Made by a program: the position numbers and the translations under genes | Notes under the pieces: model-generated | What the model was told of the DNA's origin: nothing | Databases searched by the model: none | The model's input: the letters and a program-made list of their open reading frames with translations, nothing else | Part shown: positions 18,718-19,693 of the stretch, one piece after another | How the letters are laid out: each line of letters begins with the position of its first letter | Numbering within the stretch: the stretch's first letter is position 1 | IMG/VR virus record: IMGVR_UViG_2654587571_000007 | Source of the DNA: a virus | Taxonomy: Duplodnaviria; Heunggongvirae; Uroviricota; Caudoviricetes | Strand: one strand, 5' to 3' | Length of the DNA stretch: 19,693 nucleotides

Positions 18718-19600
18718 TCACTCCTCCGGACAGCTTCGCTGCCAGTTCTTTCAGGGTTGGCCGGGTCGTCTCTTCTTCCCGGGATTTTGCCAGTACAGCC
18801 AGATCAAGCTGCCAGCGTTGCACGGACACACGTAATGCCGCGTAGGCATACACCAGGCAGTCCAGCGCTTCGTTACGCCGCTTTTTGTTATCCCACAGCA
18901 GACGCATCTTTCCTTTTTCCCACTTCTCCACAAGCTCTTCCGCGACCAGTTGCTGCGCCTCTGTCTGCGAAAAAATCTCCGGATCATCAGGAAAACGGAT
19001 GGCATACGACGTGGCTTCATCCGCAGGAGTGGGATCGGCTTTCATACGGGCATAGAGAATTTCTTTTGCGGTGTCCGTCCCCACTTCACACAGATACACG
19101 CCCCGCTGATTGCGGGTTTTCGGCATGGTGATCACCGGCTTGCCATAGACAGATGCGCCTTTTACCGGCAGCACCCGGAAAACACCGTGTTTTTTTGACC
19201 TCTGATAGACAATTTCACCATCGATCCCCCCGGTGTCCCAGCAGACACGGGAAATGGTCATTTCGGTTCCGTCTGCATGGCAGTATTTTTTGTTGATCGC
19301 CGCATCCACACGTAACAGCGTCTCTTCCTCATCGGGACGGCCCATAATGATGATTTTATCCACCAGAAAGGCTTCCTCTCCCTGTGCCCATCCCCAGACA
19401 TACATCTCAAAACGGTTTCGCTGCGAGTCAATGCCCGCCGTCAGATAAACCACCCGAGCAGGCACCGCCGCCGTGTAACGCACCACCTTATCCATCAGTA
19501 CCTGGTGATCGAGTTTTTCGCCCACGGCCTCTTCCCAGGTCTCGCCCAGCGTGGTGTTCACAAAGGTTTTCAGGCCGTTGGGATCTTTCAGTGCATCCTG
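18701..19600 (-). pseudogene. A: Terminase large subunit A, C-terminal ~300 codons only; 5' part of the gene absent or interrupted
   Basis: Track ORF 18701..19561; homology to lambda gpA extends upstream in frame to ~19600 (...[23 protein letters not shown]... versus lambda ...[13 protein letters not shown]...). An in-frame TGA lies at 19609-19607, and upstream of it no frame resembles the N-terminal two-thirds of gpA. Confidence 0.75.
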
Positions 19601-19693
19601 TAGTGGTCAAGTAATATTGGCCACGGTTTTACAGTAAAAATGGTATCTGTTCTCTGACTCTTCCGGCGTCAGCCCACCGTTATAATGGTGAGG
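19599..19693 (+). mobile_element. Putative terminal inverted repeat of an IS3-family insertion sequence (IS911-like); element continues beyond the window end
   Basis: TGTAGTGGTCAAGTAATATTGGCCACGG at 19599-19626 begins with TG and fits the IS911-type IR pattern TGAAGTGG.CA...(A/T-rich)..TGGCCAC as I recall it; it sits exactly where the gpA homology breaks. From memory only. Confidence 0.45.

Follow-up and report, generated by a model that had tools for sequence, protein, structure and literature searches.

A lambda-like, sodC-carrying prophage with its terminase gene A cut by an IS3-family element

The stretch of DNA analysed here (the window, 19,693 bp) carries the late genes of a lambda-like prophage and ends inside an insertion sequence (IS) that abuts the gene for the large terminase subunit, A. 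The locus thus raises the question of what became of the other half of this gene: whether a single transposition split it, whether a larger rearrangement carried it away together with the early part of the prophage, or whether the break exists in the assembly alone. The window is the entire draft contig JHTD01000042.1 (assembly GCA_001266295.1), and it ends 95 bases into the IS because a short-read contig breaks in a multicopy repeat. The early region, the integrase gene, cos and Nu1 all lie outside the contig, and the end of the window does not mean that the rest of the prophage is gone. It is highly likely that a 1258-bp IS3-family element was recently and simply inserted into A, that the contig broke within this element, and that the prophage lost its own packaging.

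The junction between gene A and the insertion sequence

When the end of the window is compared by megablast with 5426 complete E. coli genomes, the exact junction between gpA homology and the IS falls at 19598/19599. Terminase homology covers positions 19300-19598 at up to 100% identity, and none of it runs past 19598. Positions 19599-19693 match "IS3 family transposase" loci end to end at 100% identity in many records (2120 genomes in total), and they correspond to positions 1164-1258 of a full copy in NZ_AP018802.1 (L002 2501-2595). The breakpoint is therefore exactly the tip of the IS (…CA) and no internal position of it. The initial annotation had gene A cut by an apparent IS3-family element, and this cut is confirmed at this resolution. 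It had also met a TGA in frame near 19600, and this codon turns out to be the stop of the IS transposase gene orfB. Gene A and the transposase gene are read in the same direction. The orfB stop falls inside the right terminal inverted repeat (IRR), at a distance of 8-10 nt from the tip of the IS, and it shares its frame with the gpA remnant. The shared frame is probably a coincidence. Read-through of this stop would yield an OrfB-gpA(345-642) fusion.

The same junction, identical at every base, is present in the independent Logan assembly of SRR19671049. The contig there matches the window exactly over 7242 nt and ends after 29 bases of this IS, which makes the junction a real one and no chimera. 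Among the 5426 complete E. coli genomes no record covers at least 80% of a 394-nt junction query, and since the two halves are never joined in any complete genome, the IS insertion is strain-specific. The exact junction pattern is likewise absent from the GTDB species-representative genomes and from the JGI metagenome contigs, and the interrupted allele appears confined to one clone.

The gene without its insertion is found in the prophage of E. coli B19374, where A is an uninterrupted reading frame of 642 codons with a GpA_ATPase domain at residues 48-293 and a GpA_nuclease domain at 323-601 (Pfam). The remnant in the window shows no nucleotide difference from this allele. Its only Pfam domain is GpA_nuclease (E 1e-62, profile positions 31-287 of 294), so that a nearly complete nuclease domain and the C-terminal tail are left; the GpA_ATPase domain is missing, so ATPase and nuclease are not combined in one polypeptide. 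The insertion follows codon L344, just past the ATPase domain and about 22 residues into the nuclease model. That homology reaches the gpA C-terminus, as first annotated, is correct, and its start has moved: the remnant comprises residues 345-642, slightly more than had been stated. The 641-aa gpA of phage lambda (NP_040581.1) is 66% identical to the intact 642-aa allele and colinear with it, and in lambda, as here, W and B follow A. Unlike in lambda, residues 345-642 alone remain joined to the late operon in the window, where the remnant keeps its late-operon position upstream of W and B (Table 1). The uninterrupted target in B19374 (L001) reads ...GACTGGCT-GGA-TGCACTG.

Table 1. Features of the 19,693-bp window, in order of position.
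Feature	Position	Strand	Remarks
Tail-fibre gene, N-terminal part	2-562	-	other end of the contig; mismatches to B19374 clustered here
lom (Lom/Ail-family outer-membrane protein)	627-1250	-	no amino-acid difference from B19374, no internal stop
J (host specificity)	1319-4795	-	one amino-acid difference from B19374 (R568C), no internal stop
sodC (Cu,Zn superoxide dismutase family)	4929-5456	+	between I and J; identical to B19374 sodC
W, B (portal), C (S49 protease), D, E, FI, FII, Z, U, V, G, T, H, M, L, K, I	5647-18717	-	lambda order, intact
T	10558-10971	-	after G
G (tail chaperone)	10998-11429	-	
Lambda-type slippery heptamer G GGA AAG	11016-11022	-	a few codons before the stop of G
B	16922-18514	-	
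W	18511-18717	-	
gpA stop codon	18701-18703	-	
Gene A, 3' fragment	18701-19598	-	last base of codon 344, codons 345-642 and stop; identical to the B19374 gene
GGA, right-hand copy of the 3-bp target-site duplication	19596-19598	-	from the intact target in B19374 and the left-junction ORF
Right-hand 95 bases of the 1258-bp IS3-family element (IS911-like, ISEc31-related)	19599-19693	-	100% over 95/95 bases
IRR, 26 nt, TGTAGTGGTCAAGTAATATTGGCCAC read inward, TG...CA tip	19599-19624		from repeat pairing in the full copy
Last 28 orfB codons and TGA stop (19609-19607)	19607-19693	-	translation is the C-terminus of the 392-aa OrfAB

The complete element and its relatives

Since the window holds 95 bases of the IS, the element is described here from the full copy in NZ_AP018802.1 (L002 1338-2595), which is 100% identical to the window over its last 95 nt. 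This copy is 1258 bp long and is bounded by TG...CA-tipped inverted repeats; the left one (IRL), TGTAGTGGCACACTAAATTTGGCCAC, which is outside the window, pairs with the IRR, TGTAGTGGTCAAGTAATATTGGCCAC, over 26 nt with an imperfect complementarity of 77%. Its orfA encodes 103 aa, a slippery A AAA AAG lies at IS position 333, and the resulting OrfAB has 392 aa, in agreement with the "programmed frameshift" of the RefSeq annotation. OrfAB matches the NCBIfam IS3 equivalog model NF033516 (transpos_IS3) with an E-value of 1.2e-107 and 360 bits, the cut-off being 160, and it matches the Pfam families rve (DDE transposase; E 6e-27) and HTH_Tnp_1 (E 1e-15). Target duplications of 3 bp (AGC, AAG and CGT) flank three of the four other full copies examined. 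The marks of the IS3 family that the initial annotation had proposed to look for, orfA and orfB with a -1 frameshift, matching repeats and a short target duplication, are thus all present in full copies elsewhere in E. coli. The element is abundant, with 6073 places in 2416 of the 5426 genomes, on chromosomes as well as plasmids. A single genome has up to 17 of them, and the element is present at 99% identity or more in 936 complete E. coli records.

IS911 has the same orfA/orfB arrangement, the A AAA AAG slippery site and 3-bp duplications. The inverted-repeat motif TGnAGTGG...TTGGCCAC (AnTTGGCCAC) is common to the present element and to IS911A as annotated in K-12 MG1655, and the left end of IS911A resembles that of the element base by base over about 50 nt. 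Alignment to the K-12 IS911A is nevertheless limited to stretches of 58-66 nt at 83-88% identity, which rules out IS911 proper. The suggestion of an IS911-like terminal repeat therefore stands as a resemblance and fails as an identity. ISEc31, another IS3-family element, is closer: it belongs to the same 1258-bp length class, is colinear throughout and has the same ends. The copies that bear this name in the NCBI annotation are about 92-93% identical to the element at the nucleotide level, and among the ISEc31-named copies listed the identity to the 95-nt IS end of the window is 96.8-97.9%. The NCBI pipeline withholds the name ISEc31 from the copies that are at least 99% identical to the present element. 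By its sequence, the element would best be described as an IS911 relative closest to ISEc31 and widespread in E. coli.

Some of the other copies deserve mention for their surroundings. In E. coli W (L010; NC_017664.1, 983184-984441) the IS lies beside a phage tail protein gene, and in NZ_CP027544.1 (L011; 4467172-4468429) it lies within a SASA-family carbohydrate esterase gene that is also found in the B19374 prophage region. These two loci hint that the IS often inserts into prophages.

The missing half of gene A

If the IS was simply inserted, the other side of it should carry the first half of A joined to the IRL. The left-junction products were predicted from the intact target and the IRL for duplications of 2, 3, 4 and 5 bp, and were searched among about 15 billion proteins. 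The 3-bp version, a 349-aa product made of gpA residues 1-345 and the residues VVAH before the stop, is present exactly, and the 2-, 4- and 5-bp versions are absent from this collection. The ORF lies on a 7589-bp contig, and its two sources, NCBI and Logan, are also those of the true right junction. To be encoded, it needs ...CTGGA followed by TGTAGTGGCACACTAA, that is, the same 3 bp, GGA, as in the right flank, and the predicted left junction would read ...GACTGGCTGGA joined directly to TGTAGTGGCACAC. The finding of this ORF with its GGA duplication is therefore the signature of a simple insertion. It also points to a left GGA copy at this very insertion. The exact match to the predicted product in the same sources bears on the proposed search for the missing 5' part of A. 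It makes it very probable that the N-terminal ATPase half persists beyond the IS, on another contig, and this would imply that Nu1, which lies upstream of it, is still in the genome as well. From the matching sources we infer that the 7589-bp contig belongs to the same assembly and holds Nu1 and cos.

The alternative that survives best is an IS-mediated deletion or rearrangement, in which an IS-driven adjacent deletion, or recombination between two IS copies, would have removed or displaced the 5' part of A together with Nu1, cos and perhaps the whole early region, leaving a remnant of structural genes only. The window has a single junction and ends inside the IS, as such an event would have it, and rearranged copies of the element do exist: the full-length copy in NZ_CP129383.1 (L012; 4449529-4450786), one of the four other full copies, lacks a target duplication. 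Its flanks are CCC on the left and CAT on the right, with no matching 3 bp, which is consistent with past IS-IS recombination or with an adjacent deletion there. Against a deletion at the present locus, the chimeric ORF expected of an undeleted left junction (gpA 1-345 + VVAH) exists in the same two sources, and it uses the same GGA as the right flank. This reading is therefore unlikely. A later IS-IS recombination, whether an inversion or a translocation, could still have parted the two halves of the gene while leaving both junctions unchanged, and the draft data are compatible with it.

Truncated ORFs have to be handled with care in such searches. The 286-aa truncated ORF of A was considered as a marker for the insertion and was set aside: alone it is misleading, as it is also produced by an assembly gap. 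The same 286-aa ORF occurs on the ENA metagenome scaffold LIJU14-1...scaffold_4816 (L004) owing to a run of N at 1289-1388 inside A, in a gene that is otherwise normal and lies downstream of Nu1. A 264-aa version at another locus (L006) merely reflects a contig end. Exact matches to truncated ORFs can thus be assembly-gap artefacts.

Packaging and the late gene module

In lambda-type phages, gpA unites the packaging ATPase, the cos-cutting nuclease and a C-terminal portal-binding segment in one chain, and all of them are needed, as is established for the lambda terminase (Catalano 2000, cited as ref. 25 in PMC2669165). Because these functions must be together in one gpA chain, packaging would be lost here, in cis only. 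In the model that we favour, that of a simple insertion, the IS would have transposed after L344 and duplicated GGA, with its transposase gene co-directional with the phage late operon. The split of gpA would leave an N-terminal ATPase fragment of 349 residues, the last four of which (VVAH) would be encoded by the IS, and a C-terminal nuclease and portal-binding fragment without promoter or start. Short-read assembly would then have broken in the multicopy IS and put the 5' half of A on another contig. With the terminase that it encodes, such a prophage could no longer cut cos or package DNA. Expression of the upstream lysis genes and of the intact downstream head and tail genes from the Q-antiterminated late transcript would remain possible. 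To yield infectious particles, the prophage would have to borrow a compatible terminase from another lambdoid prophage in the same cell, or recombine with such a prophage.

The signals around the junction are in keeping with this scheme. The junction showed no sigma-70-like site, and inspection of the bases upstream of the candidate internal starts of the A remnant revealed no Shine-Dalgarno-like sequence, so the remnant would appear to have neither a promoter nor a convincing start of its own. A hybrid outward promoter built on the -35-like TTGACC of the IRR (19610-19605) was considered and rejected: it makes no sigma-70-like site, the hexamer at 17-nt spacing being AAGATC. A polar intrinsic terminator in the IS, acting on W to J, was rejected as well, since the sense strand of the IS holds no terminator-like site. 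Lambdoid late transcription is moreover Q-antiterminated and would override an IS terminator. Because of both points, expression of the downstream genes is possible, and heads, tails and lysis proteins could still be made.

Whether the DNA of such a prophage can still be packaged in trans is best judged from Sp4, a prophage of E. coli O157:H7 Sakai in which nu1 is disrupted by an IS and whose DNA is still packaged, the terminase of Sp14 being the most likely agent (Asadulghani et al. 2009, PMC2669165). Like the present prophage, Sp4 is lambdoid, has its terminase inactivated by an IS and keeps much of its morphogenesis region; its host harbours several lambdoid prophages, which form a pool (PMC2669165). 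In Sp4, however, the small subunit is hit and there are several other defects, whereas here a different IS hit the large subunit between its two domains, and no other defect is seen in the visible 19 kb. Packaging in trans, demonstrated by experiment for Sp4, would be a prediction for the present prophage. In the complete E. coli genomes that have any lambda-like terminase genes, these occupy a median of two places per genome. Given this number and the Sp4 precedent, rescue in trans by the terminase of a co-resident prophage would be realistic. It is very unlikely that the two halves of gpA, made separately, reassemble as a split terminase, or that we are dealing with a satellite-like prophage that lives by borrowing a terminase. 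In the split version, the C-terminal half would have to be made from an internal start on a read-through late transcript. A helper-dependent satellite, if it were true, would keep spreading its morons (sodC, lom and, in relatives, the nle effectors).

Downstream of the cut gene, the phage genes, all on the minus strand except sodC, can be compared one by one with their counterparts in B19374. The B19374 prophage (NZ_CP142915.1, 2021430-2043562), which is the closest relative, has the same order, A(3' part)-W-B-C-D-E-FI-FII-Z-U-V-G-T-H-M-L-K-I-sodC-J-lom-tail fibre, with A uninterrupted, and it differs in the N-terminal region of the tail fibre. The 20 genes from W to lom, sodC included, have no internal stops, and each is identical to its counterpart in the intact prophage or one residue away from it; from W to I, the single amino-acid difference is L146Q in E. 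The roughly 20 head and tail ORFs are thus full-length, as first described. An ungapped comparison over 19598 nt gives 30 mismatches (99.8% identity), of which 28 fall in the tail-fibre fragment at the other end of the contig, one in E and one in J; over the approximately 19 kb from A to lom, the two prophages differ at two positions. The clustering of mismatches at positions 2-562 suggests a recombination (mosaic) boundary there, together with a second repeat-induced contig break.

Two features of this module are worth noting. The sodC gene fills a gap of about 850 bp between I and J which phage lambda does not have, and it looks like a classic prophage "moron". The slippery heptamer in G is consistent with the conserved -1 programmed frameshift that produces G and GT. 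Beyond the equivalent of the window, the tail fibres of the B19374 prophage are followed by the type III effector genes nleB2, nleC (partial), nleH (frameshifted) and nleF (L001 26798-29955). The source prophage, too, may for this reason be a lambdoid phage with effector genes, from an attaching-effacing E. coli, the region in question lying outside the contig.

Near-identity to an intact prophage means that the insertion is recent. The initial annotation had left the choice between a recent inactivation and a selective retention of the virion module; the two differences in about 19 kb favour the former, and the latter is not needed. With so little time for decay, the intactness of the module is uninformative about selection. 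A stronger form of retention would be a selected domestication, in which purifying selection makes the host keep a packaging-dead virion, lysis and moron module (sodC, lom and the effectors found downstream in relatives). Twenty intact structural genes beside a dead terminase, and the sodC and lom morons among the cargo, would fit such a view. The A fragment, however, shows no difference at all from the intact prophage, and the junction is missing from the 5426 complete genomes, the GTDB representatives and the JGI metagenomes, so there is no conserved, spreading allele; domestication is accordingly most improbable. The idea that the 95 IS bases were misjoined, by mis-assembly or a chimeric read, to an A that is intact and continuous through ...GACTGGCTGGATGCACTG... 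is hardly tenable. Although the IS is limited to the last 95 bases, and the end of a short-read contig is where assembly graphs deserve the least trust, the Logan assembly of SRR19671049 has the identical junction, the reciprocal junction product exists, the breakpoint is exactly at the IS tip, and both assemblies break in the IS, neither continuing into an intact A.

The event as such is ordinary. E. coli offers well-documented cases of prophage genes, among them terminase genes, that were disabled by an IS; the IS is common, the prophage is of a known type with an intact twin, and no new mechanism or family is involved, so the importance of the case goes little beyond annotation. There, it is a reminder that a contig ending in an IS may mimic a truncated prophage when the remainder of the gene sits on another contig. 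As for the biology, a single transposition probably inactivated this lambda-like, sodC-carrying prophage, and did so very recently; the case shows cleanly, in a natural setting, how prophage decay begins. The work on O157 Sakai has taught that "defective" prophages can be mobilised by their neighbours, so that a disruption of this kind does not guarantee the immobility of the cargo genes (PMC2669165).
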